Positions 4,924-36,947 are shown, counted from the first letter of the stretch. The stretch is DNA of 47,772 nucleotides from an uncultured candidate division Zixibacteria bacterium (GCA_937900185.1 CALCCW010000295.1:1-47772), one strand, 5' to 3'. Program-made: numbers and translations. Notes: a model not told the origin generated them from the letters alone.

Positions 4924-5226
4924 CCCTGACGATTATATGTCTTCAGGCAATTCTTATTTAAACGTTCTGTCAGTTCCTGATTCACTAAAAATGAATTGAG
5001 AACTGACATTTAATCGTTGGTTTTCAACCCTCTAAAAAGAAACAGAAACCAATAAAACATTTTATTTTTTTTAACCTGTCTCAAAAGCAGAACCCTCCAC
5101 CCTATTTCTGCTTTATTCTCCCCTAAAATGCAATAAAATTTTCTCTTGATTTAAGTCATTTTTTTTAGATTATCATTGATTATAGTACTCTACGTTTATT
5201 ACGATATTAACATGCGATTAGAGGAT

Positions 5227-5655
5227 ATGCTCGTGATTTCAAAAACATCTGTACATGCAACACTCGCTTTGGTCTATTTAGCCCAAATCGACAAGGACAG
5301 CTATGTCGGTGCCTCACAAATCGCTGAAAATATCAATGCTCCCAAAAATTATCTTGGGAAGTTGCTTAATAGATTAGCCGCAGAAGGGCTTTTAGAGTCA
5401 ATCAAAGGATTTGGTGGGGGCTTTCGATTGGCAAAACAATCATCAAAAATTTCTATTTTCAATATTGTAGAACCGATTGATTCAATTAGTAAATTAAAAG
5501 GTTGTTTTTTAGGACAAACAACTTGTTCTTGTGATAAAACATGTGTGGTACATAATAAATGGGATAAAATTCGCTCGGATTATCTGCATTTTCTCAAAAC
5601 AACAACAATAAAAGATATAGTTGAAAAGGATATCTCTTTAAAAATAGAATCATAA
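5227..5655 (+). CDS. Rrf2-family transcriptional regulator
   Basis: YLGKLL..L...GLLES.KG.GGGFRLA and the Cys cluster CFLGQTTCSCDKTC; ATG at 5227 follows a GAGGA RBS (track start 5176). Confidence 0.9.
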   Translation: MLVISKTSVHATLALVYLAQIDKDSYVGASQIAENINAPKNYLGKLLNRLAAEGLLESIKGFGGGFRLAKQSSKISIFNIVEPIDSISKLKGCFLGQTTCSCDKTCVVHNKWDKIRSDYLHFLKTTTIKDIVEKDISLKIES

Positions 5656-5704
5656 CAAAAATGAATTATGTAGTTAATAATTTTTCAAGAAAGGATTTAC
5701 ACGT

Positions 5705-7930
5705 ATGAAAAAACTATGGGTTGGGTTTATAGCCGTAGTTGCAATCTCATTTACAATTCTTGGATGGTCCGGTTTTAAGATTTATCAGGAAAAACCGCCT
5801 ATTCCGGATATGGTAGTTACTACAACCGGAGCAGTAATTGTTCCATCTGGCGGGATTACAGCGGGTCAGAATGTTTGGCAGGCTATGGGTGGTATGGAAC
5901 TTGGCTCAGTTTGGGGTCACGGCTCTTATGTTGCTCCTGACTGGACTGCCGAATGGCTGCATCGTGAGTGTGTTTTCATTTTAAATCAATATGCAAAAGC
6001 AGATTTTGATCGTTCGTATGACGATTTAAACGAAGAACAGCAGGCTGCTCTACGTCAGCGTTTAAAATCACTTCTAAATAAAAATACATACGATCCCAAT
6101 ACTAATACACTGGTTTTAGACCCGATAAGACTTTTGGCATACAAAGCAAATGTTGCTTATTATGTTGATCTCTTTACTAATGGTAAAGAAGAGTTTGCTA
6201 TTCCTGTCGGAGCTATAAAAGATCCTGCTCGAATCAAACAGATGGCATCGTTTTTCTTCTGGTCTGCCTGGGCAGCATCAACTCATCGTGTTGATGATAA
6301 TATTACCTATACCAATAACTGGCCCCATGAGCCTTTGATTGACAACAGCCCAACATCTGATTCCTATATTTGGACAGGCTTTTCAATTCTTACGCTTCTA
6401 TTAGGTATTGCTTTATTGGTCTTTTACTATGTAAAAAATAAGGATGAGAAATCTATTCTTGAGAATCTTCCAAAAGAAGATCCTCTGCTTGGTTTTACAC
6501 CTACACCATCACAAAAAGCATCAATACTCTACTTTTGGGTGGCGGCGGCTCTCTTTATAATTCAGATGTTATTAGGAATTATCATCGCTCATTACGGAGT
6601 TGAGGGTCAGGCTTTCTATGGTATTCCAATTGCTGAATTTCTACCATACGCTGTTGCCCGTACATGGCATACCCAGCTTGGTATTTTTTGGATAGCAACA
6701 TCATGGCTGGCAGCAGGACTTTTTATTGCCCCAATAATTTCCGGTTTTGAACCTAAATTACAACGGTTAGGCGTGAATGTTTTACTTGGTGCCTTAGTTG
6801 TTGTTGTACTTGGTTCTATGACCGGTGAATGGCTCTCGATTATGGGTTATTTTAAAGGTGATATGTGGTTCTACTTTGGTCATCAAGGATATGAATATGT
6901 TGACCTTGGAAGAATTTGGCAGATTGCTCTTTTTGCTGGATTACTAATATGGGTTTTCCTTGTCGGAAGATGTATTCTGGCTGCTATCAGAAAAAAAGGT
7001 CCTGACAAAAATCTCTTATCAATGTTTTTAATCTCTATCATTGCAATCGGTGGTTTTTATGGAGCCGGCTTAATGTGGGGTAAAAATACACATCTCTCTG
7101 TTGTTGAATACTGGCGTTGGTGGGTTGTCCATCTTTGGGTGGAAGGTTTCTTTGAAGTTTTCGCCACCGCAGTTATCGCAATCTTGTTTACAAAATTATC
7201 TTTACTTCGTATGAAAAGTGCTACAAACGCTGTTCTCTTTTCAACTACTATATTTTTAACAGGCGGTATTATAGGAACTCTGCATCATCTTTATTTTTCC
7301 GGAACTCCAACAGCTATTATGGCACTCGGTTCGGTATTTTCGGCTTTAGAAGTTGCCCCTTTGACAATAATCGGATTTGAAATATGGGAAAATATTCGTC
7401 TTTCAAGATCTACCGCATGGGTTGAAAAATATAAATGGCCTATCTATTTCTTTGTAGCGGTCGCATTCTGGAATATGATTGGAGCGGGACTATTTGGGTT
7501 TATGATAAATCCGCCTATAGCTCTCTATTATATGCAGGGCTTAAACACAACTGCTGTCCATGCTCACACTGCTCTCTTTGGTGTGTACGGTATGTTGGGA
7601 CTCGGCTTGATGTTGTTCTGCCTACGGGTGAAGCATGTTAGACAGGTTTGGAATCAGAAAATTATTAAATTTGCTTTCTGGGCAATTAACATCGGTCTTA
7701 GTATGATGGTTCTGTTCAGCTTGCTGCCTATCGGACTTATGCAAACCTATGCCTCTGTTGATAAAGGCTACTGGTATGCCCGTTCAAGTGAGTTTTTATA
7801 CTCGTCAACCATTACAACCTTAAAATGGATGCGTGCCCCGGGAGATACTATTTTCGCTATTGGTATTTTGGTGATAGTTCTTTTTATCTTTGGACTTTCA
7901 ACAGGACATTCATTAAAGAAAAAAGATTAA
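5705..7930 (+). CDS. norZ: Quinol-dependent nitric oxide reductase (qNor)
   Basis: GSVWGHGSYVAPDWTA, WHTQL, WWVVHLWVEGFFEVFA, GTLHHLYF and HAHTALFGVYG motifs; 741-aa single-subunit form. Confidence 0.96.
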   Translation: MKKLWVGFIAVVAISFTILGWSGFKIYQEKPPIPDMVVTTTGAVIVPSGGITAGQNVWQAMGGMELGSVWGHGSYVAPDWTAEWLHRECVFILNQYAKADFDRSYDDLNEEQQAALRQRLKSLLNKNTYDPNTNTLVLDPIRLLAYKANVAYYVDLFTNGKEEFAIPVGAIKDPARIKQMASFFFWSAWAASTHRVDDNITYTNNWPHEPLIDNSPTSDSYIWTGFSILTLLLGIALLVFYYVKNKDEKSILENLPKEDPLLGFTPTPSQKASILYFWVAAALFIIQMLLGIIIAHYGVEGQAFYGIPIAEFLPYAVARTWHTQLGIFWIATSWLAAGLFIAPIISGFEPKLQRLGVNVLLGALVVVVLGSMTGEWLSIMGYFKGDMWFYFGHQGYEYVDLGRIWQIALFAGLLIWVFLVGRCILAAIRKKGPDKNLLSMFLISIIAIGGFYGAGLMWGKNTHLSVVEYWRWWVVHLWVEGFFEVFATAVIAILFTKLSLLRMKSATNAVLFSTTIFLTGGIIGTLHHLYFSGTPTAIMALGSVFSALEVAPLTIIGFEIWENIRLSRSTAWVEKYKWPIYFFVAVAFWNMIGAGLFGFMINPPIALYYMQGLNTTAVHAHTALFGVYGMLGLGLMLFCLRVKHVRQVWNQKIIKFAFWAINIGLSMMVLFSLLPIGLMQTYASVDKGYWYARSSEFLYSSTITTLKWMRAPGDTIFAIGILVIVLFIFGLSTGHSLKKKD

Positions 7931-7953: not shown

Positions 7954-7992
7954 AAAAGCAGTAGAGCTTAAAAATGCTCTGCTGTTTTTTTT
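7954..7992 (+). terminator. Rho-independent terminator after norZ
   Basis: AGCAGTAGAGC...GCTCTGCTG stem followed by a T-run. Confidence 0.6.
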
Positions 7993-8205: not shown

Positions 8206-10140
8206 TTACTTTTTAGACTCTTTCGATGCTTCTTCCCGCTGTAATTTTTTGTACCATCTTGGATGATGATGTTCTATTTCTTTCATCGGCATATCACCAT
8301 TGAGCCATGTAAATGACATTGGGTATTGATCGGGATGGAATATGACAAAGAAGAAGTGGAAAACACCAATTGCAAGCATTGCTAACCACGCTTCATAGTA
8401 ATGAACTGTCTCAGAGACTGAAACTATCCAGCCCGGGAATATTGAAGTGTAAAATGTCGGAAACCACAGTACAGTACCGGTAAATACCATCACAAATGTT
8501 CCCCAAGCTAATGCCCAATATTCTGCTTTCATGGTATAGTCGAAATAACCGAATTGAGGTTTGTCTTTGCTCATACCTAAGTAATAAAGTATATTCTGTT
8601 TAATTTCTTTAATATCAGACCATTGAGGAAGCATTTTTACAATTTTGGTACGACCATCTTTGGTAGCCATAACATATATAACATGATGAATAGAAACATA
8701 TATCATCAATACGGCAGCAGTACGATGCACAATACCCCGAGCAGATTCAAACAGACCGGAGAAGTTAATAATATTCACCCACCATGCATTTGGAAACCTT
8801 AAACCAAAGCCGGTGATAACTAATATTATAAAAGTTACCGTTATAATTATATGTTGAAAAACTAGATTACCATTTAATCGTTTTACAGATTTTTGAGTTT
8901 TTAAATAACGATTTTTTAGTATCAGATATCTGATAAAAATTATCGCATTATGAGCAAGCATTCCACCAATAACTACAATAATAAGAATGATATAAATAAC
9001 TTTAATAAGGTGATTTATCTCAAAATATTTATCTGTATCACTCATGTGTGTATAACTTGCCGCAAAAGTATCATTTGCATCGGGGTGACATTTCTGACAA
9101 GTTTTAGTACGATTATTCAGATTTATAGATGAAGCAGGATTAGATGCCGGTAAAATATCATGAGCATTGTGACAAGAGGCACAATTTGCCGCTTTCACAG
9201 AACCTCCATGAATTGCCAGTCCGTGGTAGGTGTCTTGATAGGTTGTAAATCTATCTTTGTTAAACCCATATTTCGCTGCCATACGAGTATCATTATGACA
9301 TTTTCCGCAAACGTAATCGGAAATATTAGCATTATTAATCGGAGAATTAGAATTATTTGTACTTAAAATCTCATGCTCCCCATGACAATCAACACAATTA
9401 GGTGCATCTAATATTCCAGCCGCCAATGCTTTTCCGTGAATTCCCCTGCTGTATTTAACATAAATCTCTTCGTGACATTTTGAACAGGTTTTAGGGATAT
9501 TCATTTTATTTACTTTAGAATCTGAATGAGAGGCAAGTTTTAAATCATGTACTCCATGACAATCAGTACATGTTGCCGCAGTTTCTATACCCTCTGAAAA
9601 ACGTTTGGCATGAATACCTTTCATATATCGACCCGATATGCTGGATAATTTGATATCAGGGTCTTTTGACAACATATTTTTCTCATGGCAATTTGCACAA
9701 GTTTGAGCAATATTATTACGTGCTGTCATTGACTCTGGATTTTCTGACGACCTGATGTTATGGGTACCATGACATGATGAACAGGTAGGTGCCAAATCGT
9801 TATGTTTAGCCATGCCGTGGACTGAAGTTGCAAATTCTGCTGCAACATCATCATGACAGCTTGCACAATCAACCTTGGCAAGATTTTCTTCATGTGGAAA
9901 ATCATCAACTCCTTCTAAATCAGCATGACAGTCAATACATGATAAATCTGCATGCACCGATAAATTTAAGGAATCTGAGGTAACAAACATTGACACTTCT
10001 TTACCGTTATGATTAATTCCGGTAAGTTCAGAATCATCATGGCAGGAAAGACACGTTTCGTTATCATCCTCAGCTGAGACAGACAACCCAAAGCATAGAA
10101 TGATACTTAAAAGATAAATAATTAGTTTTAATCTATTCAT
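8206..10140 (-). CDS. CbcL-like fusion of multiheme cytochrome c (11 CXXCH) and cytochrome b
   Basis: Signal peptide, 11 CXXCH, then a multi-TM FdnI-like cytochrome b domain with His ligands (FQH, VHR, VHYYEA, FHFF). Confidence 0.88.
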   Translation of the reverse strand: MNRLKLIIYLLSIILCFGLSVSAEDDNETCLSCHDDSELTGINHNGKEVSMFVTSDSLNLSVHADLSCIDCHADLEGVDDFPHEENLAKVDCASCHDDVAAEFATSVHGMAKHNDLAPTCSSCHGTHNIRSSENPESMTARNNIAQTCANCHEKNMLSKDPDIKLSSISGRYMKGIHAKRFSEGIETAATCTDCHGVHDLKLASHSDSKVNKMNIPKTCSKCHEEIYVKYSRGIHGKALAAGILDAPNCVDCHGEHEILSTNNSNSPINNANISDYVCGKCHNDTRMAAKYGFNKDRFTTYQDTYHGLAIHGGSVKAANCASCHNAHDILPASNPASSINLNNRTKTCQKCHPDANDTFAASYTHMSDTDKYFEINHLIKVIYIILIIVVIGGMLAHNAIIFIRYLILKNRYLKTQKSVKRLNGNLVFQHIIITVTFIILVITGFGLRFPNAWWVNIINFSGLFESARGIVHRTAAVLMIYVSIHHVIYVMATKDGRTKIVKMLPQWSDIKEIKQNILYYLGMSKDKPQFGYFDYTMKAEYWALAWGTFVMVFTGTVLWFPTFYTSIFPGWIVSVSETVHYYEAWLAMLAIGVFHFFFVIFHPDQYPMSFTWLNGDMPMKEIEHHHPRWYKKLQREEASKESKK

Positions 10141-10169
10141 TTTAAATCCCGGTTAAAATGATAATTATA

Positions 10170-11741
10170 TTAATGACATTCGGTACAAACCGAGTCGTTT
10201 ATTTTTGTTTTACCATGTTCCGTTAAAGAATGACAACTGGAACAAGCAAGCTCCATATCCGCTGCATGTAATTCATGAGGAAGTTCAGTATCATCATATT
10301 TTACAACTTCAGGAAAGAACGCATTTCCATGACAGAAAACTTGACAATTTTTCTCAGGAGACAAAGCATCTCCTCGAAAAGGCGTTTGATATGATTTATT
10401 AATCTTTTTCATCGCATTTTCAAATTTATCAGCAGCATGATTTAATATATGAGTGGAATACTTAATGTTGTGAACCATGTGTCCCTCAGAAACAAGATTG
10501 AAATCTTCTTTCATCTTTGTATATTCCGACTGAACTAAACGTCTTTGTTTTTTTGAACCGCCGATAGTTTTAAAATCAGCATAACTTTTTTTCATATAGG
10601 TTTTATAATCTTTCATTGCAAGTTTTTCACCTGATTTCCAATTATCAAACATAAGATCATAATTCTCACCATGGCAGGTAACGCAAGATTTACGAGATGC
10701 TTCTTTCTTCTCTTGGTGAGCCATAACCTCACCCTCAGCAGTTATATGAGTGTGACATCCTGTACAGCTGACTTGTGCTTGAAACATTGCCGACGGCATA
10801 TCGTGTAGTTTATCTGAACTGCCTATACCCATATAGAGCTGTTTCGGTTTATTATGCTGTCTGAGATGACAGTTCTCACATTGAATTTCTAAAGCACCAA
10901 CCATTTTATAATTACCATGTTTGATAAGATCATGACATTTCTGGCAATTGATTCCGGCATTTGTTACATGTATGTCATGCAGCTCAGCTTTAGTATAATC
11001 CTTTCGAAATCTTTCTACATGACAAGAATAGCATTTTCCTTCAGGAACAGAAGCATCGCCTTGTACAATTTTAATGTGACATTGCTTGCACTCAACCCCC
11101 AACTCAAGATAAGGTTCATGATTAAACATAAATCCGTCATGTTCAACTGCTGTTTTTGGATTACCATGACAGGAATAACAACCGGTAATAGCTTCTCCCT
11201 CACCGGCATCTTTAAAATGACAGACAAAACATGTTTGCTCATTTACTTTCATGTGTGTTAACGACTCATCATCTTGTTGAGACATTTGGTTATGACACGA
11301 CGTACAATGAAGTTTACCGCTCCTTAAAACTTTGTTAAGATGGGTGCTGTGTTGAAAGAAAATATTTTCTTTGTATTTTAACCCTTTGTCAAGCGACTCT
11401 TCATCGTGACAATCAGCAGCCAAACAGTTTTCATTCATAACTCTCGCCTGAGGTCTTGTATTATACGTTTCTGTTGCATATTTAATAGATGAAAGAATCA
11501 AGTCACCTCCACTATACTCATGACAGGCAACACAATCAACACCAGAATGTTTTGATGCCTGCCAATGACGTACATACGGGTCCATATAATGACAAGAATC
11601 ACAAAATTCGGAGTTTGTTGTTTCATACGAAGCAAAAGAATATAAGACAACCAATATAATAATAATGAAGCCTATAAAAACAAATAATCCTTTAATATTT
11701 TGCTTTAAGAGAGTTCCAAAATCTTTCAATAATTTCGTCAT
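10170..11741 (-). CDS. Membrane-anchored multiheme cytochrome c with NapC/NirT-like N-terminus (13 CXXCH, 1 CX4CH, 1 CX3CH)
   Basis: N-terminal TM; FCDSCHYM and CVACH NapC-like start; motifs counted in the translation. Confidence 0.85.
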   Translation of the reverse strand: MTKLLKDFGTLLKQNIKGLFVFIGFIIIILVVLYSFASYETTNSEFCDSCHYMDPYVRHWQASKHSGVDCVACHEYSGGDLILSSIKYATETYNTRPQARVMNENCLAADCHDEESLDKGLKYKENIFFQHSTHLNKVLRSGKLHCTSCHNQMSQQDDESLTHMKVNEQTCFVCHFKDAGEGEAITGCYSCHGNPKTAVEHDGFMFNHEPYLELGVECKQCHIKIVQGDASVPEGKCYSCHVERFRKDYTKAELHDIHVTNAGINCQKCHDLIKHGNYKMVGALEIQCENCHLRQHNKPKQLYMGIGSSDKLHDMPSAMFQAQVSCTGCHTHITAEGEVMAHQEKKEASRKSCVTCHGENYDLMFDNWKSGEKLAMKDYKTYMKKSYADFKTIGGSKKQRRLVQSEYTKMKEDFNLVSEGHMVHNIKYSTHILNHAADKFENAMKKINKSYQTPFRGDALSPEKNCQVFCHGNAFFPEVVKYDDTELPHELHAADMELACSSCHSLTEHGKTKINDSVCTECH

Positions 11742-12685
11742 GAGTTGTCCTCCACATCATCGTTTTCGGACTGCTTTATAATATCAACGGATTCTTCTTT
11801 AATGATAGCCTCATATTCCAAAGGATGGTGATGTTTCATTTCAGTTTCGGTTAACTGTCCATGCCACCAAGTCCAACTCATCGGGAAAACCTCGGGGTTG
11901 AAATGAACATTATAAAAATGCCAGATAACAATCGACAAAGTAGCTAAAAGTCCTTCATCGGAATGCATCTCACGTCCAACATCATAAAAATATTTTGGGA
12001 AGAATTCTTTATACCACATAATAGCACCGGAGCCAATCATAATAACCATGCCCCAATAAACTGCCCAATAATCAAATTTTTCAATAAAAGAAAACCGTCC
12101 AAATTTTGGACCGCTTTTTGATTTACCTATATAATACTTTATAGTACCCATGAAATCTGCGGCATCTTTTAAATTTGGAATCATCAGGAAAAAATCTCTT
12201 CGTCCAATTTTTGAAGCAACAGAGTAGCCCAAATGCCATACTCCTACAATTATTAAGCCAACTGCTCCGATACGATGTATTAGAGTAGAATTTTGAAGCC
12301 CGCCAAATAGGTCTATGACTATAAATTTTGATATTGCAAATTCAGGAAATTTTAAAGGCATACCGGTAATTATAAGAATAATAACTGATACAAACATAAG
12401 CATGTGCTGGTATCTAAAGTTTTTACCAAACCGTTCAAAGTTTCTTTCAGGTCGCTCTTCAGGATACATTTCACTCAAAGATTGCGGGTGAAGTTTTGTA
12501 ACTGCTTCATTGAGTAGACTTGACGATTCATATTGCAGTCTTTCAGTCACTTCTGTTGATATCTCATTTATTTGCTCACTGGTGGGTTCAATTTTTACAA
12601 TATCAACAGCAGATTTAATAATATTATCAGATAAGCCTTTTATGTAAGCTTCTCTTTTATCAAGATTTGTTTTCTTGTTACTCAT
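11738..12685 (-). CDS. Cytochrome b subunit (FdnI/CbcL b-domain-like)
   Basis: YQH, IHRIGA, EKFDYWAVYWG, MHSDEGLLA and WHFY; stop overlaps the next start (ATGA). Confidence 0.85.
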   Translation of the reverse strand: MSNKKTNLDKREAYIKGLSDNIIKSAVDIVKIEPTSEQINEISTEVTERLQYESSSLLNEAVTKLHPQSLSEMYPEERPERNFERFGKNFRYQHMLMFVSVIILIITGMPLKFPEFAISKFIVIDLFGGLQNSTLIHRIGAVGLIIVGVWHLGYSVASKIGRRDFFLMIPNLKDAADFMGTIKYYIGKSKSGPKFGRFSFIEKFDYWAVYWGMVIMIGSGAIMWYKEFFPKYFYDVGREMHSDEGLLATLSIVIWHFYNVHFNPEVFPMSWTWWHGQLTETEMKHHHPLEYEAIIKEESVDIIKQSENDDVEDNS

Positions 12686-12692
12686 CTGTCAG

Positions 12693-13742
12693 TTACCTTT
12701 TTGTTCTTGCATTTTTTGCTCGGCGGAATAAGTCCATAATGATAAAAGCAAACAGTCCAAGAAGAACTGATACTGTTAATATTACAAATGCTTTTGAAAT
12801 ATAATATATAATTCCCGAATCTTCACTTTTCGGATTTATATGAATTTGCTGTCCTGATGAAAATTCCGCTGAAGCTCCGGGATGACAACCTTTTTTACCA
12901 CATGTCTTAGGAATATTATCAGGATAAACCGAAGATTTAGGATCGTCCTCACCACGAATATCATGATAGTCATGACAGGATGCACAATTTGCAACAGTTT
13001 TGCTGCCCATCTGCTGACCAATGCCGTGAAACGATTCTTCAAATGTTTCAACTCTATCAGTTTTTACATTATATTTATTCACTACTCCCTGCGGACCATG
13101 ACACTCGGTACATGTTTCAGATATCCTTTCATCAGAAACTCGGGATTCAGCATTATCGTGTTGTTTTATATCATGTTCTCCATGACAACTTGTACAGGTT
13201 GGGGCATCTTTAATTCCATCAGCAACTGCCCTCCCATGAGTTGACTCTTTATATACAGCATATATTTCAATATGACATGAACCGCATGTTTTTGGAATGT
13301 TTTGCCAATAGAATTTTGATTCTATTGTTTTATGTGAAAACACATCATGTCCACCATGACAATCCTGACAAACAGGAGCTTTTTCATTTCCGGCAAGAAC
13401 TGCCATTCCATGTACCGAATGTTCATATTGGTCATACATCTGTCCGTCAGGGGCTCCGACCTGATTCCCTGAATAATGACATCGGCGGCAGTTAACTTTT
13501 TTAACTGCTTTATGTGGAATTTCGTTTATATCAGAATGACAATCAGTACAATCTTTATTATAGTGAACTGAACGGGCAATAATTGATTCATCAACATATA
13601 ATGGAATTTTCCGACCGGTTTCTTCAGAACGGTGAATTTCCTTTTTGCTGTGACATATCTGACATTTCTCTAATGCATATAAATCTGATGAACTACCGCA
13701 TAGAAGAAAAAAAACTAAGACTATATAACTTAACCGATTCAT
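12693..13742 (-). CDS. Multiheme cytochrome c (8 CXXCH, 1 CX4CH) with C-terminal anchor
   Basis: Signal peptide, heme motifs, C-terminal TM; paralogous to the c-domain of 8206..10140. Confidence 0.88.
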   Translation of the reverse strand: MNRLSYIVLVFFLLCGSSSDLYALEKCQICHSKKEIHRSEETGRKIPLYVDESIIARSVHYNKDCTDCHSDINEIPHKAVKKVNCRRCHYSGNQVGAPDGQMYDQYEHSVHGMAVLAGNEKAPVCQDCHGGHDVFSHKTIESKFYWQNIPKTCGSCHIEIYAVYKESTHGRAVADGIKDAPTCTSCHGEHDIKQHDNAESRVSDERISETCTECHGPQGVVNKYNVKTDRVETFEESFHGIGQQMGSKTVANCASCHDYHDIRGEDDPKSSVYPDNIPKTCGKKGCHPGASAEFSSGQQIHINPKSEDSGIIYYISKAFVILTVSVLLGLFAFIIMDLFRRAKNARTKR

Positions 13743-13746
13743 TTAC

Positions 13747-14559
13747 TTACTCCACCCTTTTAACTCGACGCTTGTATTCCAAAATGCGATAGAGAACAAA
13801 AGCAATTATAATAATTGTAATAAAGAAAATATAGAACTTCCGCACAAAAAACCGTCCGCCGGACTCTTTTGTCGTTGCTGAAGTATGAATAGTTCCATGA
13901 GCAAAATCCGGAGGTAAATCTGTATGACATTTGCCGCAAGTTGCTTCTATATTATCTTTGTAAATCAATGACTTAGGATTATCCTGTGGATAGATATTAT
14001 GTACTCCATGACAAGAAGCACAATTAGCTACTGATGATTCACCAAACTCATTTGCGATACCATGAAAAGATTCTTTAAAGGTTGCTATTCTATCTGCTTT
14101 TAATCCAAATTTTCCAACAATTCTTTCTGATGCGTGGCATGCTGAACACGTTTTAGGCACATTTGTAGAATACACATTTGATTCAGGATTAAGATGAGAC
14201 ATAATATTATGTCCACCATGACAATCAGTACAATCAGGAGATTCTTTAATACCATTTTGTAAAGCAACACCATGAACAGATTCTTCATAAATTTTATATA
14301 TATCTTCATGGCAGGAACTACAATCAACATCTGTTTGAAATGCATGTTTTTCTTGAGCATTTATATCATGACAATCAGTACAATATAACTTTTTATGAAC
14401 CGAATTGTTGATAATTGAAGAATCTACGTGGATTGTTGTTTCATTTGCTTGTTCGCCAATTGCTGAATGACACCTTAAACATGCAGAATCATCGGCTAAA
14501 ACAAATGTAGCAGAAAACATAAAAATAATGAAAATAATATACTTCATATTTACACCCAA
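13747..14559 (-). CDS. Heptaheme cytochrome c with C-terminal anchor
   Basis: Signal peptide, 7 CXXCH, C-terminal TM; start may be the internal ATG (MKYIIF). Confidence 0.88.
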   Translation of the reverse strand: MGVNMKYIIFIIFMFSATFVLADDSACLRCHSAIGEQANETTIHVDSSIINNSVHKKLYCTDCHDINAQEKHAFQTDVDCSSCHEDIYKIYEESVHGVALQNGIKESPDCTDCHGGHNIMSHLNPESNVYSTNVPKTCSACHASERIVGKFGLKADRIATFKESFHGIANEFGESSVANCASCHGVHNIYPQDNPKSLIYKDNIEATCGKCHTDLPPDFAHGTIHTSATTKESGGRFFVRKFYIFFITIIIIAFVLYRILEYKRRVKRVE

Positions 14560-14728
14560 ATTCTATTGAAGCGTTGTCTCTATTACAGGATGACAACTAA
14601 CCTCTTTATTGTACACTAACTTCTCTTTATTACTTGGGATAATATATGTAAATATTCACTAACAGCAAGTTATATTTTTCACAAAGAGAGAAAAAAATAT
14701 CTTCTTTCGATATATCGCTCTAAACAGG

Positions 14729-16246
14729 TTAGTAACCTGATTCAGGAGTATGACATTCAGTACAATTCATCTCTTTCCATGCACCGTCAATATCTTCAGG
14801 ATGCTTGAATTCAACCCCGGATAAGTTATGCTCTAATTCAGCAACATCCTCCGAAGGTCCTTGTGCCACGATAAGATGACAAGTTGTACATTTGTTGGAA
14901 AGTTTTTTTCCATATTGATTTTTCATTGCTCCGTCATGACATCTAAAACAGCCGTCATTCACAAAATGAGTCAAATTATTCTGTCTGTCTCGATAGTCAG
15001 TTTTCATTTCAGGGAAGAAATTTTGTTCATATATTTGTATAAGTTCTTTTACAGCTTGTATAATAAGAGGTCTTTTTTCATTTGCAATATCAGGGTATTC
15101 ATTTTCATAATATGCAACTAATTTTGTACGAATTGAATCAATCGCTTCCGGTTTGGTCTTATATTCTGCGTTTAGCAATTCAAGTCCAACCTCACGGATA
15201 GATTTCAATTCCGGTGATATCCGTCTGGTAGAAATTGCTAAATTAAGAAGTTTTGCCGGAGGATTAAACTTATGAGATGGTCTGTTATGACAATCCATAC
15301 AATCAAATCTCCGAATTTCCGTCAATGGATTTGAAAAATCAGGCTGTTTTTCGTCTGGGTCAGTATATATGAGAGTATCGCCGGTTTCGTTATTGATAAT
15401 TCTCACCCAGTTGATTTCATCTCGTTTGTAATCATTGGCTACATAATCAACTGTAGAACCTAACATGTGCCAGTGAATTCCCTCAAGTTTACCGGTTCTT
15501 GGATTTCCCCCGCCTATTTTAACCAACATTTTGATAGTCCAAGGAGTGTTGTCTTCATCCGTTTTATAATATGTATTGGTAATCATTTTTTCACCATAAA
15601 ACTGTTGCGGCCAATGGCATCCTTCACAAGTTTCTTGAGCAGGACGAAGATTATGCACCGGGGTTTGTATCGGTCTGCTGAAAGAGTTGGCTGCCATGGC
15701 ATATAACTGGCGCAAACCGTCAACTTTTGCTTTCACATAAAAAGATGCCCCCGGTCCGATATGACATTCAACACAAGGAACACGGGCATGAGCAGAATTT
15801 TGATACGTGATAAATTGCGGCGACATAACTTCGTGACATGTTTCTCCGCAAAAATTTACTGAATCGGTAGCCTCGTATGCTTTGGTGCCGGAATAAATGA
15901 CTAGAATAATAAGCACACCTAATACACCCAAAAAGATACCAATATTACGAATATAGTGAGGATCGGTTGTGTCAAAAGTAAGATTAAATGAAAATTTTTC
16001 ACCTTTTGCTTTTGCTTTGCTAACCTGTCGCCATACTGAAACCATAAAGAGAGCAAAACCAAGTACAGCAAACATTGGAGCAATTACAAAAGTGACCAAA
16101 GAACGGTATGGGTTTTCTGTTGCTCCACCAGTTAAGTCAATTAATAACAATACAAAAAAGAGCAGTAAACCTGCAACAAACAAAGCAGCACCTATGCCGC
16201 CTAATGGGTTTCTTAATAAAGATCGTTTTCTTATTTTAGACATCAT
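14729..16246 (-). CDS. ImcH-like NapC/NirT-family heptaheme inner-membrane cytochrome
   Basis: Three N-terminal TM helices, 6 CXXCH plus CGETCH, and CMDCHNRPSH; ~500 aa, matching the Geobacter ImcH architecture as recalled. Confidence 0.78.
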   Translation of the reverse strand: MMSKIRKRSLLRNPLGGIGAALFVAGLLLFFVLLLIDLTGGATENPYRSLVTFVIAPMFAVLGFALFMVSVWRQVSKAKAKGEKFSFNLTFDTTDPHYIRNIGIFLGVLGVLIILVIYSGTKAYEATDSVNFCGETCHEVMSPQFITYQNSAHARVPCVECHIGPGASFYVKAKVDGLRQLYAMAANSFSRPIQTPVHNLRPAQETCEGCHWPQQFYGEKMITNTYYKTDEDNTPWTIKMLVKIGGGNPRTGKLEGIHWHMLGSTVDYVANDYKRDEINWVRIINNETGDTLIYTDPDEKQPDFSNPLTEIRRFDCMDCHNRPSHKFNPPAKLLNLAISTRRISPELKSIREVGLELLNAEYKTKPEAIDSIRTKLVAYYENEYPDIANEKRPLIIQAVKELIQIYEQNFFPEMKTDYRDRQNNLTHFVNDGCFRCHDGAMKNQYGKKLSNKCTTCHLIVAQGPSEDVAELEHNLSGVEFKHPEDIDGAWKEMNCTECHTPESGY

Positions 16247-16351
16247 AATTCTATATCCTTAATCATAATTATGTCAAACAAAGTTCATATTCATAGTTAG
16301 TGTGGATTAGTATATATGAAAAACAGAACAAAACAAGTACTTTTTTTCACA

Positions 16352-16381
16352 AAGCCGCAACGTCATACGACGTTGCGGCTT
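16352..16381. terminator. Perfect 13-bp hairpin between the porin and ImcH-like genes
   Basis: AAGCCGCAACGTC-ATAC-GACGTTGCGGCTT. Confidence 0.6.
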
Positions 16382-16461
16382 ATAAGAGAAGCAATAACAA
16401 AAAGGAGGGTCTTTTTGTAGTATATATGAAGCTGATTTTTTACAAAATCAGCCCTACATTT

Positions 16462-18642
16462 CTAAAACTGTACTTTAAATCCGGATCGTACCATATAAAA
16501 TGAACCGGATTCATTACCAAACACATACCCTTGGTCATCTGTTAAATCAGCATATTCGCCGTCCAATGTAAAGGTTACTGTTGGTGATACTTTATAACTT
16601 AAACCTCCGTTAAGTTTCAAAAGAGTATAATCTAAATCTGAATAACTGTTTAAGTTTGTAAAGTCATAATCCATATTATCAACCAAATCTCCACCTGTTT
16701 GGGCAGAAATAGCTGCTAAATCTGGCATCTGGACTTTATCTAAAGCTGATTCAGCTTTATTCCAGGTTACTGTACCAAACAAATTTAATTTAGCTGATGC
16801 TGCATAACTCATTGAAGCAAACAGATTGTGAACTTTACTTTCATAATCAGTCATAGCATAGATTGAACCATAATGTCGAGCGTCGCCACCGGCGTCGCGA
16901 TATATATGACCACCTCAGCCATCCATCAATGCAACCGTCACAGGAAGTCGTGATTTATCATAGTTATATGAATATCCGGCTTGTATTGAGAAAAGATTAT
17001 CCGGTGTATACTGCAAAGAAACTGATGGAATAAATGATGTATGTTTAACATCTAAGGAATCAAGATCATCGTTCTTGTCAAAATTTCCTTTTACTCCAAA
17101 GGTAGTAGAAAATTTCATATTAGGATTATAACTCATATTCCAATTAAATGAGAACACTTGAGTTGGCATAGTAGTTATATTCTGATACCGTAAACCTTCA
17201 CGTTGGAAATAAAATACCCAATTAGAAGTCGGGACCAATGGTCTCAAAGCAGTACCATTTGCTTCAAATATTCCTTTAGCGGAAATAAATGGATCGGTAA
17301 TTTTTTCAAACCGAACTTTTAAGGATGAACGTAATGATAAGTTTTTACGATATCTAAACTTACCTTGTGCATAGAATTTTTTAGTCGAAGTACCATCATC
17401 ATGAATCGGATAATCATCGCGATTGACAATATTATAACCGACTAAACCGGCAACAGTCAAATTTGAATTCATCCGTTTAATCAGTTCAGCAGACATATTT
17501 GCATTTGTTCTGTTGAGTGCTGAATAACGGGTAAAATCAAAATTATATGAATTGCCGTCTGCGGCACCTTCTCTAAATGTCGGAAGGTCAATATAGATTG
17601 AATCCGAATCATATTTTGAAACAGCAACTTTTGCAATCAATTTTGTTTTTGAATCCAAAAATGTTGCATAATTGAACGCACTCGAATAAGAGTTACTTTT
17701 TAACGATGTAAACTTATTCTCAACAGATGCATATCCTAAAACTCCTGCTAAATATCCTTGACCAAAATTTCTTTTAAACTTAACTTTGTGAGACATTTTT
17801 TCAGTTTTTGGAACAACAGAAAATTCGGCATCTACATCTTCATAAATAAGACGTGAACCAAATTCTCCACCGGCAGTACCTTTTGTGGGATGTACCGCAT
17901 CATCATAGTACGCCATTGACGCTTGATTTTTTGGATCATACAGCCTGTAACCAAACTGATAGCCAATATCAAATTTATTTATATCAGCATCTATACCAAC
18001 TTCAAATTGATGCTGCGTGTTGTTTACTTTACCTTCCATTGATGTCAAGTGACAGCTAAAACAATGATCAGATGATATTTTCTGTTCTGTTCCGGTTTTT
18101 AATATCATTCTATGGGTAGCATTCAACCGAACATTATTTTTTTCAGATAATAAGATTGAAAACTGAGATAATAATTCCTGACGATATGTATTATAGTCAG
18201 CATTAGGGTCTTGAATCTCATGAGTCAGTATTTTACCGCCCTGAGTACCGGTTTCAGGGAAATATTCACGACCTTCCATATTCGTTAAAAGGTCCTGCCC
18301 TTCCTGTTTTAATAATGAACGATACTGAACAGATAATTTATACTTATTTGAAATAGTAGAGCTTAATTTCGCATAGGCATTTTTGTTATCGTAATAGTGA
18401 CCTAAAAAACGAAGAATAGAGTTTGGTCCGCTCGAAAGATAGTTTAATTTAAACTCCGGTAGAGTTTCATTTTCACCTTTATTATATTCTCCAACTTTTT
18501 TAGAATAGTCGGTAAAATCTGTATAATGACCGCCAAGCCAAAAAGAATAGCTTTCTGTAGTTGGTCCATCATCGGCTAACACAAAAGAATTTGCCAGAAG
18601 AAGAACAACTAATACAAAAACAAACTTTATCAATAATTTCAT
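16462..18642 (-). CDS. MtrB/PioB-like outer-membrane beta-barrel with one CXXCH; probable selenoprotein (UGA at codon 576, 726 aa)
   Basis: ORFs 16915..18642 and 16462..16854 share a frame and are separated by TGA plus 20 sense codons (MDG*GGHIYRDAGGDARHYGSIYA). The joined protein ends in a beta-signal (GFKVQF) and lies directly downstream of a decaheme gene. Confidence 0.85.
16866..16914 (-). promoter_or_regulatory. Bacterial SECIS-like stem-loop
   Basis: After UGA: GGUCAUA...CGCGACGCC-GGU-GGCGACGC...UAUGGUU. The G-containing apical loop begins 24 nt after UGA; GC-rich patch in an AT-rich gene. Confidence 0.75.
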
Positions 18643-18651
18643 ATTTTGCTC

Positions 18652-19578
18652 CTATCTGGTTAAGGCGTTACCGCCGGTTGAGGTTGTTTGTGACGGCATG
18701 TCAGAACCATGAATTTCAGTATGACACTGCGTACATTTTGTATTAAACCCGCGTTCAAAACTATCAGAAGTAGAAGTACCTGATCTTTCAGGAGCTAAAG
18801 GATCAACAAAAGCACCATCTACACCCACTACTGATGAATGGAAATGCATAGGGTGACAGCTCAAACACAATGTTGGTTCTGATTGTTTTAAAAGATTGTC
18901 AGCAACTGTACCGTGTGGTGAATGACATGTCAAACAGCCTTCCTGTACAGGAGCATGCTCATACACAAACGGACCTTCTTTTTCAGCATGACAACTATAA
19001 CAAAGTTCGGATCCGCTATAGTCCATTGTCAAACGTGCAGGTTCACCATGCACTCCATGACAATCGACACATTCCAATTTGCCCTCACCAATAGGATGGT
19101 GCGACGGCATGGAAAGAGATGCTCTTACATCGGCATGACATTTAAGACAATTTTCCGATGATGACTTAACTGTCGGATTTTCAATACTTGTATGGACAGA
19201 GTGACAGTCCGCACAAGTTAAATCGGCAGAAGCATGTGCTGAAAATTTCCAATTATCAAACTTATGTGATTTGTGACATGTGAGACATAATTCTTTTGCT
19301 CCAAACTGTCCCGAATTTGCCGGATTAATAATTAATGCCGGATCGCCATCTTTAATATGATCAACTGCTGAACCATGACAGGCTTCACAATTTGCATCTT
19401 TCAGACGGTCAATTGAACTAAAATAAATACCGTGTGCTGTATTACTGAACATTTCAGTAACATCATCATGGCACCCGGCACAGACTTCATCTGATACACC
19501 TGCCGAAATCGGCTGTGACATCAAAAGAAGCATTCCCACGAACAAAAGCAGCAGACCGCCGCATGTGGTTTTCTTCAT
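18652..19578 (-). CDS. MtrA/DmsE-family decaheme cytochrome c
   Basis: Signal peptide, exactly 10 CXXCH; PSHHP, GPFVYEHAPV and CTQCH.EIHGSD motifs. Confidence 0.93.
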   Translation of the reverse strand: MKKTTCGGLLLLFVGMLLLMSQPISAGVSDEVCAGCHDDVTEMFSNTAHGIYFSSIDRLKDANCEACHGSAVDHIKDGDPALIINPANSGQFGAKELCLTCHKSHKFDNWKFSAHASADLTCADCHSVHTSIENPTVKSSSENCLKCHADVRASLSMPSHHPIGEGKLECVDCHGVHGEPARLTMDYSGSELCYSCHAEKEGPFVYEHAPVQEGCLTCHSPHGTVADNLLKQSEPTLCLSCHPMHFHSSVVGVDGAFVDPLAPERSGTSTSDSFERGFNTKCTQCHTEIHGSDMPSQTTSTGGNALTR

Positions 19579-19676
19579 TTCTGCTCACCTCATTGTTAAT
19601 TTCATTACCTACCTCCGGTTAGCTGTAACACCAACCTTGTTTATCTTATAATCGCCAAACAAATCCACAAACAAGA

Positions 19677-19704
19677 CTAAGTTAGTTTATATTAACTAAC
19701 TTAG
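19677..19704. promoter_or_regulatory. 11-bp perfect inverted repeat; candidate TetR operator
   Basis: CTAAGTTAGTT-TATATT-AACTAACTTAG; related sites at 20341-20358 and 14645-14663. Confidence 0.55.
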
Positions 19705-19719
19705 AGGATATAAAAAAAA

Positions 19720-20328
19720 TCACTCTTCTATTTTAGTTGTTAAACCTCGAGCATAAATAGGTACATTATTAGCAACCACATCTTCGGGTTTGAAAGTTTT
19801 ACCCTGAAAACCTTTCCAAAGAGTAGTAGATAATGCACAGTCGAACACCATACCGGTAAAACAGCGTGCTGTTATTTCATTATTTTTTTTAATTATTTTT
19901 CCATCTGCATAAAAACGATCAAATTGGGCAACTAAAAATTTAACATAAGAACCACGAATAATCTGATATACTTTTTTTGCTTTATTATGTCCACGCAACG
20001 CTGAGAACAAAAGTAAGCGGTATATATCTTCATTTTTAGTAAAGTAGTGAATAATATGTAAGGCAAATGCTTCTAAAAAGGGTAGAATTTCATCCATTTT
20101 TTCTAACTCTGGAAAAAGTTCATTTGTTCCCAATCGTGACTCTATAGAATCTAATACAGCATTATAAATAGCTTCTTTAGATGCGTAATGTCTGTACAGA
20201 GCAGGTTCTGTAATAGAACATGCCTCAGCCAACTGTTTAATAGTTACCTTATCATATCCCGCATCAGAAAAAAGTCTGGTTGCTTCGTTTAAAATCTGAG
20301 CTTTTCTGTCAAATGAATCTGATCTCAT
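19720..20328 (-). CDS. TetR/AcrR-family regulator
   Basis: ILNEATRLFSDAGYDKVTIKQLAEACSITEPALYRHYASKEAI HTH. Confidence 0.95.
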   Translation of the reverse strand: MRSDSFDRKAQILNEATRLFSDAGYDKVTIKQLAEACSITEPALYRHYASKEAIYNAVLDSIESRLGTNELFPELEKMDEILPFLEAFALHIIHYFTKNEDIYRLLLFSALRGHNKAKKVYQIIRGSYVKFLVAQFDRFYADGKIIKKNNEITARCFTGMVFDCALSTTLWKGFQGKTFKPEDVVANNVPIYARGLTTKIEE

Positions 20329-35193: not shown

Positions 35194-36198
35194 ATGCTTA
35201 AGATAAATGGACTATCTCATTCTTTAGAGGATTATAAATATATTGATCTTTTTGCAGGAATTGGAGGGTTTAGATATGCTTTAGATTCTTTTGGAGCAAC
35301 ATGTGTCTTTAGTTCAGAATGGGATAAAAATGCTCAAGAAGTGTATAAGAATAATTTTGGTGATATGCCGGAGGGTGATATTACTCAAGTTGATGAGAAA
35401 GAAATCCCAAAACATGATATTTTATGTGCAGGATTTCCATGTCAGGCATTTAGCATATCAGGTAATAAAAAAGGTTTTAATGACACAAGAGGAACTTTAT
35501 TCTTTGATATAGTGAGAATTGCAAAATATCATAAACCTAAGTTCCTTTTTTTAGAAAATGTCCGAAATTTTGAAAATCATGACAATGGCAATACATTAAA
35601 AACTGTATATAATGTACTTGAATCATTAGGGTATAATGTATTTCATAAAGTATTAAATGCTAGTTGTTTTGGTGTTCCGCAAAACAGAGAACGAATATAT
35701 GTTTTAGCCTTTCGACAAGAAAAAATAAACATCCAAAACTATGAATTTGTAAAACCCTCAATGAGAAGTGTTACGTTAAAAGAAATTTTTCTTGAAAAAG
35801 AGTATATTGAAGAATTCTACATAAATAGAGAAGATATTATTCTTAACACATCAAAAAAAATTGAGCCTGATATTTTTGGGAACTATCCCTTAAAACCTAT
35901 TCGTATTGGAACTGTAAATAAGGGCGGACAAGGTGAGAGAATTTATCACGAGTGTGGTCATGCAATCACGCTTTCCGCTTATGGTGGCGGTATAGGAGCA
36001 AAAACAGGTTTGTATGCGACAAATGGAAAAGTACGAAAACTTGCTCCAAGAGAATGTGCAAGACTGATGACATTTCCGGAATCTTTTATAATGCATAGTT
36101 CAAAATATCAAAGTTACAAACAGTTTGGCAATTCTGTTGTTGTTGATGTTTTACAGTATATTCTACAGGATTTAATTATTAAGAAAGTACTGCATTGA
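35194..36198 (+). CDS. C5-cytosine DNA methyltransferase, M.HhaI-like (probable GCGC specificity)
   Basis: DLFAGIGG, GFPCQAFS, ENV, QNRERIY; HhaI-like TRD KGGQGERIY...ITLSAYGGG; QFGNSV. Confidence 0.93.
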   Translation: MLKINGLSHSLEDYKYIDLFAGIGGFRYALDSFGATCVFSSEWDKNAQEVYKNNFGDMPEGDITQVDEKEIPKHDILCAGFPCQAFSISGNKKGFNDTRGTLFFDIVRIAKYHKPKFLFLENVRNFENHDNGNTLKTVYNVLESLGYNVFHKVLNASCFGVPQNRERIYVLAFRQEKINIQNYEFVKPSMRSVTLKEIFLEKEYIEEFYINREDIILNTSKKIEPDIFGNYPLKPIRIGTVNKGGQGERIYHECGHAITLSAYGGGIGAKTGLYATNGKVRKLAPRECARLMTFPESFIMHSSKYQSYKQFGNSVVVDVLQYILQDLIIKKVLH

Positions 36199-36947
36199 AA
36201 AATAACAATCTGATAAAAATTGGCTCTCAAACGGCAAAAAACGGTTTTAAGAATGAAAAATATATAGCCTATAAATTTGATCACTGGAGAACTGACCCTG
36301 AAGCAAAATTATGGCTTAAAATTATGGGGTACAATTTTGATGAAATCAAAAATGTACAAGCTGTAATAATTACAAGAGAAAAAACAGATGTACAAGTACA
36401 AATTGAAATAGAAACAAAAGATGCTATTTCACGTGAAAACATACAAGTAAAATTGGTATCAACTCGCTCAGGGTTTAATCAGATTGATAAAAGATGGGTA
36501 GATAAATATTCTGAACTTTGGTCTATTCCTGATAATGTAAAAATACTTTTAAAACATTTTACCGGTGAAATTGAACCAAATATTGAGAATCCAAAAGATT
36601 CAAGAAGAATGTTTATAAACGAGTTTACGAAAAAAGATCAACATCTGATAATAAATTTCTTTTTATCAAATAAGCCTCTAATTGTAAATGATATTTTAAA
36701 GGGTAGAGGTCCATTTGCTGCAGAATGGATGCTAATTGCTCAAAAAGTAATGTCTGATGCTCAATGGGTACTAAAACCAATGAATATTGTTATTAATCAT
36801 TATAGTGCCGGAAGTGTAGAGTTATCTCCTCGTGGTAGTCTAAAAATTGGTCGTATAACTGCTCAAAGAAAAGGTGGTGATGGGGGACGGCTAACTGCAA
36901 ATATGCTGCAATTTAAGATTGATCCAACAGAATTATTTGATGATTAA
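36195..36947 (+). CDS. Type II restriction endonuclease, HinP1I family (G^CGC)
   Basis: GSQTAKNGFKNE, NIQVKLVS..GFNQIDK and QRKGGD.GR.TANMLQFKIDPTELFD match recalled R.HinP1I; TTG start overlaps the MTase stop. Confidence 0.88.
   Translation: MKNNNLIKIGSQTAKNGFKNEKYIAYKFDHWRTDPEAKLWLKIMGYNFDEIKNVQAVIITREKTDVQVQIEIETKDAISRENIQVKLVSTRSGFNQIDKRWVDKYSELWSIPDNVKILLKHFTGEIEPNIENPKDSRRMFINEFTKKDQHLIINFFLSNKPLIVNDILKGRGPFAAEWMLIAQKVMSDAQWVLKPMNIVINHYSAGSVELSPRGSLKIGRITAQRKGGDGGRLTANMLQFKIDPTELFDD

Follow-up and report, generated by a model that had tools for sequence, protein, structure and literature searches.

A zixibacterial multihaem cytochrome cluster predicted to move electrons across the cell envelope, with an outer-membrane barrel selenoprotein of the GSU2204/OmcL family

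The subject of this work is a cytochrome gene cluster in a 47,772-nt stretch of DNA (GCA_937900185.1, CALCCW010000295.1:1-47772), which we call the window and always mean at its full length. The cluster occupies positions 8206-20328 of the minus strand and consists of nine genes, all in the same direction and read from 20328 to 8206. In this order they are:

19720..20328, minus strand: TetR-family regulator, 202 amino acids (aa), first gene of the cluster (Pfam TetR_N, E 5.6e-15)
18652..19578, minus strand: periplasmic decahaem c-type cytochrome of the OmcK/MtrA type, 308 aa, 10 CXXCH motifs, cleavable signal peptide
16462..18642, minus strand: outer-membrane beta-barrel selenoprotein of the GSU2204/OmcL family (NF041027) with one haem motif, 726 residues, selenocysteine at U576
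14729..16246, minus strand: ImcH-family inner-membrane seven-haem cytochrome, 505 aa, three membrane helices, one CX3CH and six CXXCH
13747..14559, minus strand: seven-haem cytochrome with a C-terminal membrane anchor, a paralogue of the CbcL haem domain; likely ATG at 14547
12693..13742, minus strand: nine-haem cytochrome (8 CXXCH and one CX4CH) with a C-terminal anchor, the haem half of a split CbcL-type unit
11738..12685, minus strand: dihaem cytochrome b, 315 aa, the membrane half of the split CbcL-type unit (Ni_hydr_CYTB, E 2.8e-13)
10170..11741, minus strand: 15-haem cytochrome with one N-terminal membrane helix and a NapC/NrfH/ImcH-like first module
8206..10140, minus strand: CbcL-type fusion of an 11-haem periplasmic domain and a dihaem cytochrome b

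Translation of the open reading frames (ORFs) yielded 56 CXXCH and four longer haem motifs, exactly the number counted in a preliminary description of this DNA. The genes following tetR carry, in order, 10, 1, 6, 7, 8, 0, 13 and 11 CXXCH. The longer motifs are a CX3CH in each of the ImcH-like and 15-haem proteins and a CX4CH in each of the nine-haem and 15-haem proteins, and all four are retained in 11 of the 11 orthologous loci that were compared. When stop-to-stop segments of at least 100 aa were considered, there were 56 CXXCH per 3,659 aa within the cluster vs. 1 per 12,949 aa in the rest of the window, thus the number of motifs is far above chance. Plain ORF calling gives ten ORFs; reading the barrel frame through a UGA merges two of them and restores the nine co-directional genes of the preliminary description. 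The decahaem and barrel genes are separated by 9 nt, the spacings from the seven-haem gene through the fused gene are 4, 7, -4 and 29 nt, and gaps of 215 and 169 nt precede and follow the ImcH-like gene.

The UGA lies in the gene that had previously been described as a porin with one haem motif. The outer-membrane barrel and its single haem motif were recognized correctly, but the selenocysteine (Sec) had been overlooked. Three features of this gene are relevant here:

18049..18063, minus strand: CFSCH haem-binding motif of the barrel, residues 194-198, identified in the family alignment
16915..16917, minus strand: in-frame UGA encoding selenocysteine in the context MDG-U-GGH, identified by read-through translation and conservation
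16880..16898, minus strand: hairpin of the selenocysteine insertion sequence (SECIS) type, GCGACGCC-GGU-GGCGACGC, identified by covariation

The first part of the barrel ORF, 575 aa long, stops at the TGA in 16915-16917, and a 130-aa ORF (16462-16854) resumes in the same frame. The 575-aa part scores 513.5 bits (cut-off 350) with the NCBIfam model NF041027, "GSU2204 family CXXCH-containing (seleno)protein, part 1". Besides passing this cut-off, the protein has the CXXCH motif and the in-frame UGA of the family, and the genome has the machinery of Sec incorporation, adjacent selA and selB genes and a tRNA-Sec (63.7 bits). Among 151 genomes of the same phylum (the phylum sample), 61 had a match to the barrel, and 57 of these contained exactly one in-frame TGA, which is conserved down to 33% identity; the four exceptions were a degraded copy, a barrel of 26% identity without a stop, and two C-terminal fragments. 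A wider set of related loci was collected with an alignment of the decahaem protein, which matched at least 590 relatives, of which 80 loci were kept. Forty stretches (39 loci and the window) carried both halves of the barrel, and in 38 of them a single TGA was found at the same spot, within the motif [FMYW]DG-U-[AG][GAS]; the other two were a pseudogene with a deletion and a locus reaching the end of its contig. The 38 TGA-bearing barrels span six further phylum-level groups, with records from Desulfobacteraceae, Desulfuromonas, Holophagales, Thermoanaerobaculia and Sulfomarinibacteraceae. In two homologues of full length the Sec position is occupied by Cys.

The hairpin begins 19 nt downstream of the UGA's first base. 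Of the cells in an alignment of 25 Zixibacteria-type sequences, 82.5% were paired, as against 26-51% in slid controls, and 32 cells showed double changes vs. 7.5 +/- 2.6 in shuffled alignments, none of 500 shuffles reaching 32. The folding energy of the whole 66 nt after the UGA was not significant (z = 0.11), and in an Rfam scan of the window at gathering thresholds a tRNA was the single hit, with no match to a SECIS family. As far as sequence evidence goes, the conserved UGA, the covarying hairpin, the Cys variants and the presence of selA, selB and tRNA-Sec identify the barrel as a selenoprotein. The family is already catalogued as such, a 2026 review includes the GSU2204 family among prokaryotic selenoproteins (PMC13188914), whereas our literature search found no functional study of these barrels. 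Most of the 150 barrel cluster representatives listed either stop at residue 575 or are C-terminal fragments. Gene callers thus cut the family at the UGA, and surveys of electron-transfer genes are likely to mis-annotate it. In one related locus (L023, G059:C5) the barrel gene has a deletion and an additional TAG, probably due to decay or sequencing error.

An AlphaFold2 model of the barrel, built on 40 full-length sequences, had a predicted local distance difference test score (pLDDT) of 84.6 and a predicted template modelling score (pTM) of 0.77, and showed a large barrel of about 28 strands. The top PDB match in Foldseek was MtrB of the solved Mtr complex (6r2q_B, E 1.1e-20, template modelling (TM) scores 0.65/0.72), followed by TonB-dependent receptors (best E 1.8e-9, TM about 0.3). 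The decahaem protein, whose ten haem motifs are all invariant among 25 homologues, scores 227 bits with the DmsE-family model TIGR03508 of NCBIfam, above the cut-off of 192. A decahaem of the DmsE/MtrA family thus adjoins a barrel of MtrB fold, and the Mtr-type conduit postulated in the preliminary description stands on both counts.

It is useful to compare this pair with known conduits. It resembles MtrAB(C) of Shewanella in the family of the decahaem and in the best structural match of the barrel. MtoAB and PioAB are two-component decahaem-porin pairs without MtrC, and the pair in the window likewise has no MtrC. MtrB has 26 strands; the barrel in the window differs from it in having about 28, shares only approximately 12% identity, lacks the Pfam MtrB_PioB match, and carries its own haem motif and Sec. 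The closest likeness in gene order is to OmcK/OmcL of G. sulfurreducens (GSU2203/GSU2204; NF041028/NF041027), where the decahaem is also followed by a large barrel with one CXXCH and an in-frame UGA. A Geobacter sp. assembly holds the same pair, with the Sec context YDG-U-AG and a hairpin after the UGA. The pair described here is different in that it is preceded by TetR and followed by the ImcH and Cbc genes, and its barrel and that of Geobacter are too diverged to be matched by tblastn at E 1e-8. On the function of OmcK/OmcL the literature search found only expression data. GSU2203, which is OmcK, and GSU2204 were reported to be upregulated 2.4-2.7-fold with haematite in Geobacter (PMC4070692), and Murali et al. 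proposed OmcK/OmcL as a porin:cytochrome conduit in the partners of methane-oxidising archaea (PMC10553843).

The gene following the barrel encodes the ImcH-like protein. It has hydropathy peaks at residues 18-36, 51-69 and 102-120, a CX3CH motif (CGETCH, residue 133) beside the membrane helices, and six CXXCH besides. These are all the sequence features given for the family by Zhong and Shi (2018, PMC6295460), namely a length of 495-519 aa, three N-terminal helices, an adjoining CX3CH and six CX2CH. The NrfH, TorC and NapC models score far under their cut-offs on this protein. The Geobacter sp. assembly contains a single match, 40% identical over residues 8-500; the matching ORF is 519 aa long (504 aa from the start used in the tree), has six CXXCH and one CX3CH, and from these features we infer that it is the orthologue of GSU3259. 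In 44 homologues the CX3CH is present in all, and six CXXCH are found in 31, five in 13. The seven-haem forms comprise the tier of the window, a second Zixibacteria tier (approximately 40% identity) and Geobacter; six haems are found in a third tier of Zixibacteria, in Acidobacteriota and in a Desulfuromonas assembly. A quick maximum-likelihood tree of the 44 sequences placed the seven-haem forms in one clade, with a support of 99 in the Shimodaira-Hasegawa-like approximate likelihood ratio test. This phylogenetic check, of the kind proposed in the preliminary description, put the window's protein together with that of Geobacter, and its label as ImcH-like agrees with architecture, identity and clade. 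What distinguishes it from ImcH (GSU3259), which it resembles in length, helices and haem motifs, is that it belongs to a Zixibacteria subfamily on a long branch (1.13 changes per column in the quick tree) and is encoded beside an outer-membrane conduit. ImcH of Geobacter is reported to be defined genetically, as needed for acceptors above about -0.1 V.

The gene is the only member of the ImcH family found in the window's genome (91% complete), and in the phylum sample the family is present in 109 of the 151 genomes. A genome of the same genus (G149:C51:40189-41520, L145) has a second, six-haem ImcH paralogue (32% identity), which was not found in the window's genome. In another locus (L025/L105, G154:C3) the ImcH gene contains an in-frame TAA, for which decay or a sequencing error is the likely cause.

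The fused protein at the end of the cluster is 644 aa long, with 11 CXXCH and a Pfam Ni_hydr_CYTB domain at residues 428-603. This corresponds to the architecture described for CbcL/MtrH/MtoC, in which an N-terminal, periplasmic part carrying 3-23 CX2CH is joined to a b-type cytochrome in the membrane (PMC6295460). In its b domain H430, H472, H580 and H595 are invariant in five of five aligned sequences. The family is described with six transmembrane segments, and a simple hydropathy scan of the protein indicated a signal peptide and four strong segments. Identity to the CbcL-type forms of Geobacter, Desulfuromonas and Thermoanaerobaculaceae is about 29-37%, with 37-38% to an 11-haem Thermoanaerobaculaceae form and 32% to a 618-aa, nine-haem ORF of the Geobacter assembly, which fits the published description of CbcL. 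The protein thus shares with CbcL (GSU0274) the periplasmic multihaem part, the dihaem b domain and the conserved His residues, and the preliminary assignment as CbcL-like is borne out; it differs in having 11 haems vs. 9, owing to a two-haem insertion that is absent in the Geobacter form, and in being accompanied by a split version and an orphan haem domain.

The separate cytochrome b has the same four invariant His as the CbcL-type proteins, and in the Geobacter assembly it matched one ORF only, the CbcL-like one, in its C-terminal domain (37% identity), in agreement with the split CbcL-like pair seen earlier. Similarly, when the assemblies of Geobacter and Desulfuromonas were searched with the seven-haem protein, it matched only the CbcL-like ORF, in the haem domain (34-35% identity). 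We considered that the seven-haem protein, or the nine-haem protein with cytochrome b, might represent CbcBA, a b cytochrome (CbcB) next to the seven-haem CbcA, and rejected this identity, because in the Geobacter assembly the cytochrome b and the seven-haem protein match the CbcL-like ORF only, and Joshi et al. report that CbcB is not homologous in sequence to CbcL. By homology, the cluster therefore holds three CbcL-derived units, an anchored haem domain, a split form and a fused form, and no CbcBA. The seven-haem protein is similar to CbcA in architecture alone (seven haems, C-terminal anchor). It must be noted that this protein is shortened in the window's genus: it has seven CXXCH in approximately 270 aa in four of four loci, and its counterparts in other genera have 11 CXXCH in approximately 400-440 aa (seven of seven loci: L006-L009, L024, L025 and L124).

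The 15-haem protein had no counterpart in the Geobacter or Desulfuromonas assemblies, except that residues 8-81 matched ImcH; orthologues of at least 49% identity are present in 20 of the 151 genomes of the phylum sample. Its gene and the preceding cytochrome b gene share 4 nt, and because of this overlap we suspect that cytochrome b, the nine-haem and the 15-haem proteins form a complex.

The complete gene order (HD-domain and aconitase genes, TetR, decahaem, barrel, ImcH, 7/11-haem, nine-haem, b, 15-haem and 11-haem-b) is present in five loci: the window, two loci of the same genus (L004 and L005, the latter ending at the contig end), and L024 and L025, where it is kept at 53-69% protein identity. 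Two other loci (L026 and L125) agree with this order as far as their contigs extend. The search for synteny suggested in the preliminary description thus found the arrangement kept in other genomes. In five further loci (L011, L019, L020, L023 and L027) TetR, decahaem and barrel are accompanied by ImcH and different CbcL-like genes, and of the 61 genomes of the phylum sample with a barrel gene, 13 have an ImcH-family gene no more than 6 kb away from it. A six-haem ImcH-like gene and a CbcL-like gene stand next to a decahaem gene in three Acidobacteriota loci (L088, L090, L096), and 15-haem-like and CbcL-like genes are paired with a decahaem in Aminicenantes and Elusimicrobia (L062, L093). The clustering of ImcH-type, CbcL-type and decahaem genes is no peculiarity of this genome, since it recurs in Zixibacteria and in these three Acidobacteriota loci.

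The survey of 2018 reports no mtrAB or mtoAB beside any imcH (PMC6295460), thus the linkages found here add to that survey. Zixibacteria were reported to carry Geobacter-like porin-cytochrome operons in the FeGenie study (PMC7005843), and MtrA homologues were noted in a Zixibacteria metagenome-assembled genome (PMC11279179). Our literature search, which did not extend to the supplements of papers, found neither the ImcH/CbcL linkage nor the barrel selenoprotein described in Zixibacteria. The best named relatives of the ImcH-like protein and of the decahaem are from Zixibacteria metagenome-assembled genomes, and the loci sharing the gene order are labelled Zixibacteria or Fibrobacteres-Chlorobi-Bacteroidetes (FCB) group. 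The organism is probably a zixibacterium, in line with the earlier guess of an FCB-group genome. In a Desulfuromonas sp. (G152:C60:76769-84932; L108, L113) assembly, a six-haem ImcH-like and a nine-haem CbcL-like gene are on one contig, approximately 5.4 kb apart, and in the Geobacter sp. assembly the ImcH-like and CbcL-like genes are on different contigs.

Taken as a whole, the cluster is probably a TetR-controlled, modular gene island, whose products carry respiratory electrons across the cell envelope; we favour this reading with moderate confidence. By analogy with the homologues, several alternative menaquinol:cytochrome c oxidoreductases would draw on the quinone pool of the inner membrane. 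These would be the ImcH-family seven-haem protein, the fused CbcL-type 11-haem/dihaem-b protein, the split pair of the nine-haem protein and cytochrome b, which probably works with the translationally coupled, membrane-anchored 15-haem protein, and the anchored seven-haem paralogue. That the different oxidases may serve different potentials, as proposed in the preliminary description, is an analogy with the genetics of Geobacter only. The long periplasmic haem chains would pass the electrons to the MtrA/OmcK-type decahaem, which is presumably sheathed in the MtrB-fold barrel of the OmcL/GSU2204 family, and the barrel itself, with its haem and Sec, may be the first exit site in place of a separate MtrC-type protein. 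The flow of electrons would be outward, to insoluble or high-molecular-weight acceptors such as Fe(III) or Mn(IV) oxides. All parts of the system belong to known families, and we see in it a well-preserved representative of an established type, not a system of a new kind.

Several observations weigh against this reading. The decahaem misses the cut-off of the GSU2203 family model NF041028 by 6 bits (319 vs. 325), and neither part of the barrel matched any Pfam family at E <= 0.01, including MtrB_PioB. The loop containing Sec has a pLDDT below 50, so its placement on the outer face is a matter of strand counting only. The cluster contains no extracellular multihaem cytochrome and no small periplasmic shuttle. 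Homologues of OmcKL are reported to be highly expressed in bacteria thought to take up electrons (PMC10553843), and relatives of CbcL/MtoC to occur in Fe(II) oxidisers (PMC6295460). Finally, parts of the island can be missing. In G077, a genome of the same genus (95% complete; L123, G077:C18:1-20000), the genes from ImcH through the fused gene are present without TetR, decahaem and barrel, and no barrel was found anywhere in this genome. In G029 (L124, G029:C7) the conduit and the Cbc block are present and ImcH alone is missing, and four genomes (L006-L009) have TetR-ImcH-Cbc without decahaem or barrel.

As modules are present in some relatives and absent from others at one and the same site on the chromosome, the system is modular, and its parts do not have to act exclusively with each other. 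The earlier characterization of the system as self-contained is not supported: modules can be absent, as in G077 and G029, the cluster is without an extracellular cytochrome or shuttle, and 21 multihaem ORFs lie elsewhere in the genome. These data raise the question whether the locus is simply a hot spot beside the HD-domain and aconitase genes, which holds independent cytochrome modules with partners encoded elsewhere. The independent presence or absence of modules at the same site, the gaps of 215 and 169 nt around the ImcH gene, and the 21 further ORFs with at least four CXXCH on other contigs fit such a hot spot. On the other hand, all genes are co-directional, the spacings are tight or overlapping between decahaem and barrel and from the seven-haem gene through the fused gene, the complete order is kept in L024 and L025 at the identity given above, and in Acidobacteriota, too, ImcH-type and CbcL-type genes are linked to a decahaem, and we consider the hot spot rather improbable. 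The whole genome contains 27 stop-to-stop segments with at least four CXXCH (229 motifs), grouped on contigs C81, C98 and C295; the 21 ORFs on other contigs include clusters on C81 and C98, and also lie on C75, C143 and other contigs. Twenty-six of the 27 segments are on the minus strand of their contigs, which is possibly a script artefact.

As to the direction of electron flow, the same machinery might work in reverse, with the conduit taking in electrons that Fe(II), a cathode-like mineral or a syntrophic partner supplies, and the CbcL-type units reducing quinone. A decahaem-porin pair without MtrC is the layout of MtoAB/PioAB. In sulfate reducers fed by methane-oxidising archaea, the OmcKL homologues rank, according to Murali et al., with the most highly expressed conduits (PMC10553843), and some members of the CbcL/MtrH/MtoC family come from Fe(II) oxidisers (PMC6295460). 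The outward direction is, in view of this expression and these members, not established. Against uptake, ImcH homologues were, by the 2018 survey, known only from electron-exporting organisms (PMC6295460), and both GSU2203 and GSU2204 of Geobacter are responsive to Fe(III) oxides (PMC4070692). Moreover, no lithotrophic electron sink is indicated in the window, and a quinol-type nitric oxide reductase (qNOR) gene near the cluster is not kept beside it in L004. We regard a reversed pathway as unlikely.

The likely position of haem and Sec in the barrel follows from counting strands in the model. There the Sec loop (residues 572-592) is five strands from the C terminus, and the CXXCH turn (residues 192-197) is 14 (or 16) strands earlier. 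With the C terminus in the periplasm, the Sec loop would be on the opposite, outer face, and the CXXCH turn, an even number of strands away, on the same face. Haem motif and Sec thus both appear, from strand parity, to be on the outer side, where the barrel would form the first exit site. It is conceivable, though we think it doubtful, that the barrel is the terminal redox site of the pathway, with a covalent haem at its outer mouth and Sec either ligating this haem axially as a selenolate or acting as a catalytic residue next to it. If true, an outer-membrane protein would here contain a naturally occurring haem-selenium centre, which would replace the extracellular MtrC-type cytochromes and set which acceptors the cell can reach. 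A barrel binding one c-type haem in the outer membrane is reminiscent of Cyc2 of Fe(II) oxidisers, a fused cytochrome-porin, with no homology implied. The haem motif of Cyc2 is in a separate N-terminal domain, and Cyc2 is not known to have Sec or a decahaem partner, whereas the motif in the window's protein is in a turn of the barrel.

The same residues could also mean that the barrel is an enzyme, in which haem and Sec form a surface site reducing a specific substrate (selenite or tellurite, polysulfide or sulfur, or another chalcogen or metalloid) and the inner cytochromes feed it. Sec is normally catalytic, and in 40 aligned family members the CXXCH (C194, C197 and H198, 40/40) and the Sec site (Sec or Cys in 36/40) are, of all residues capable of redox chemistry, the most strongly conserved; every other His or Met varies, H251 (34/40) and H285 (33/40) coming closest. 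The predicted position of both on the same outer side would suit such a site, and another conduit cluster of Geobacter has a selenoprotein (ExtKL), listed in the 2026 review (PMC13188914), and is reported to serve selenite reduction. However, four family members keep the haem motif with neither Sec nor Cys at the site, the Zixibacteria barrels have no CxxU or UxxC redox pair, and the Sec loop is, as noted, poorly modelled (pLDDT < 50). We give a substrate-specific enzyme a low probability, and retain the barrel as part of an electron conduit.

Zixibacteria are widespread and uncultured in sediments, and the island offers a concrete, nearly complete gene set for what may be mineral respiration or electron exchange with a partner. 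It shows that ImcH-type and CbcL-type quinol oxidases, which are apart in Geobacter, can be linked together and to an outer-membrane conduit. The natural presence or absence of modules, even within one genus, provides a comparative test of how far the parts depend on each other, and the barrel draws attention to a family with haem and Sec which is catalogued but functionally unstudied.

Two non-coding features flank or interrupt the genes:

19677..19704, no strand assigned: perfect palindrome with 11-bp arms and the core TAGTT..AACTA, candidate TetR operator, between the TetR and decahaem genes
7954..7989, no strand assigned: terminator-like hairpin with a 14-pair stem and T tracts on both strands, a consensus match only, between the cluster end and the convergent qNOR gene

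Of the 36 Zixibacteria-type loci with mapped synteny in which the decahaem-barrel pair is present, 30 have a TetR gene ahead of it. The core of the palindrome occurs three times in the window vs. 1.04 expected, and 8 of 100 shuffles reach three, which is not significant alone; in 14 of the 19 other loci matching the core it is found either immediately before TetR or between TetR and the gene that follows. From its position the palindrome may well be the TetR operator. A promoter scan was uninformative in this AT-rich DNA (71 sites vs. 57.5 +/- 6.6 in shuffles).

An Rrf2-family regulator and the qNOR, a NorB with a fused cytochrome c-like domain, are encoded at 5176-7930 of the plus strand and converge on the end of the cluster. 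A functional tie to this neighbour was considered and dropped, as in L004, a locus of the same genus, no match to the pair was seen next to the cluster. Farther away, at 35194-36947 of the plus strand, a gene for a C-5 cytosine DNA methylase is followed by one for an R.HinP1I-type endonuclease, forming overlapping restriction-modification genes. A C-terminal sorting domain of the type IX secretion system (Por_Secre_tail), encoded at 46066-46698 of the minus strand, fits the FCB group.

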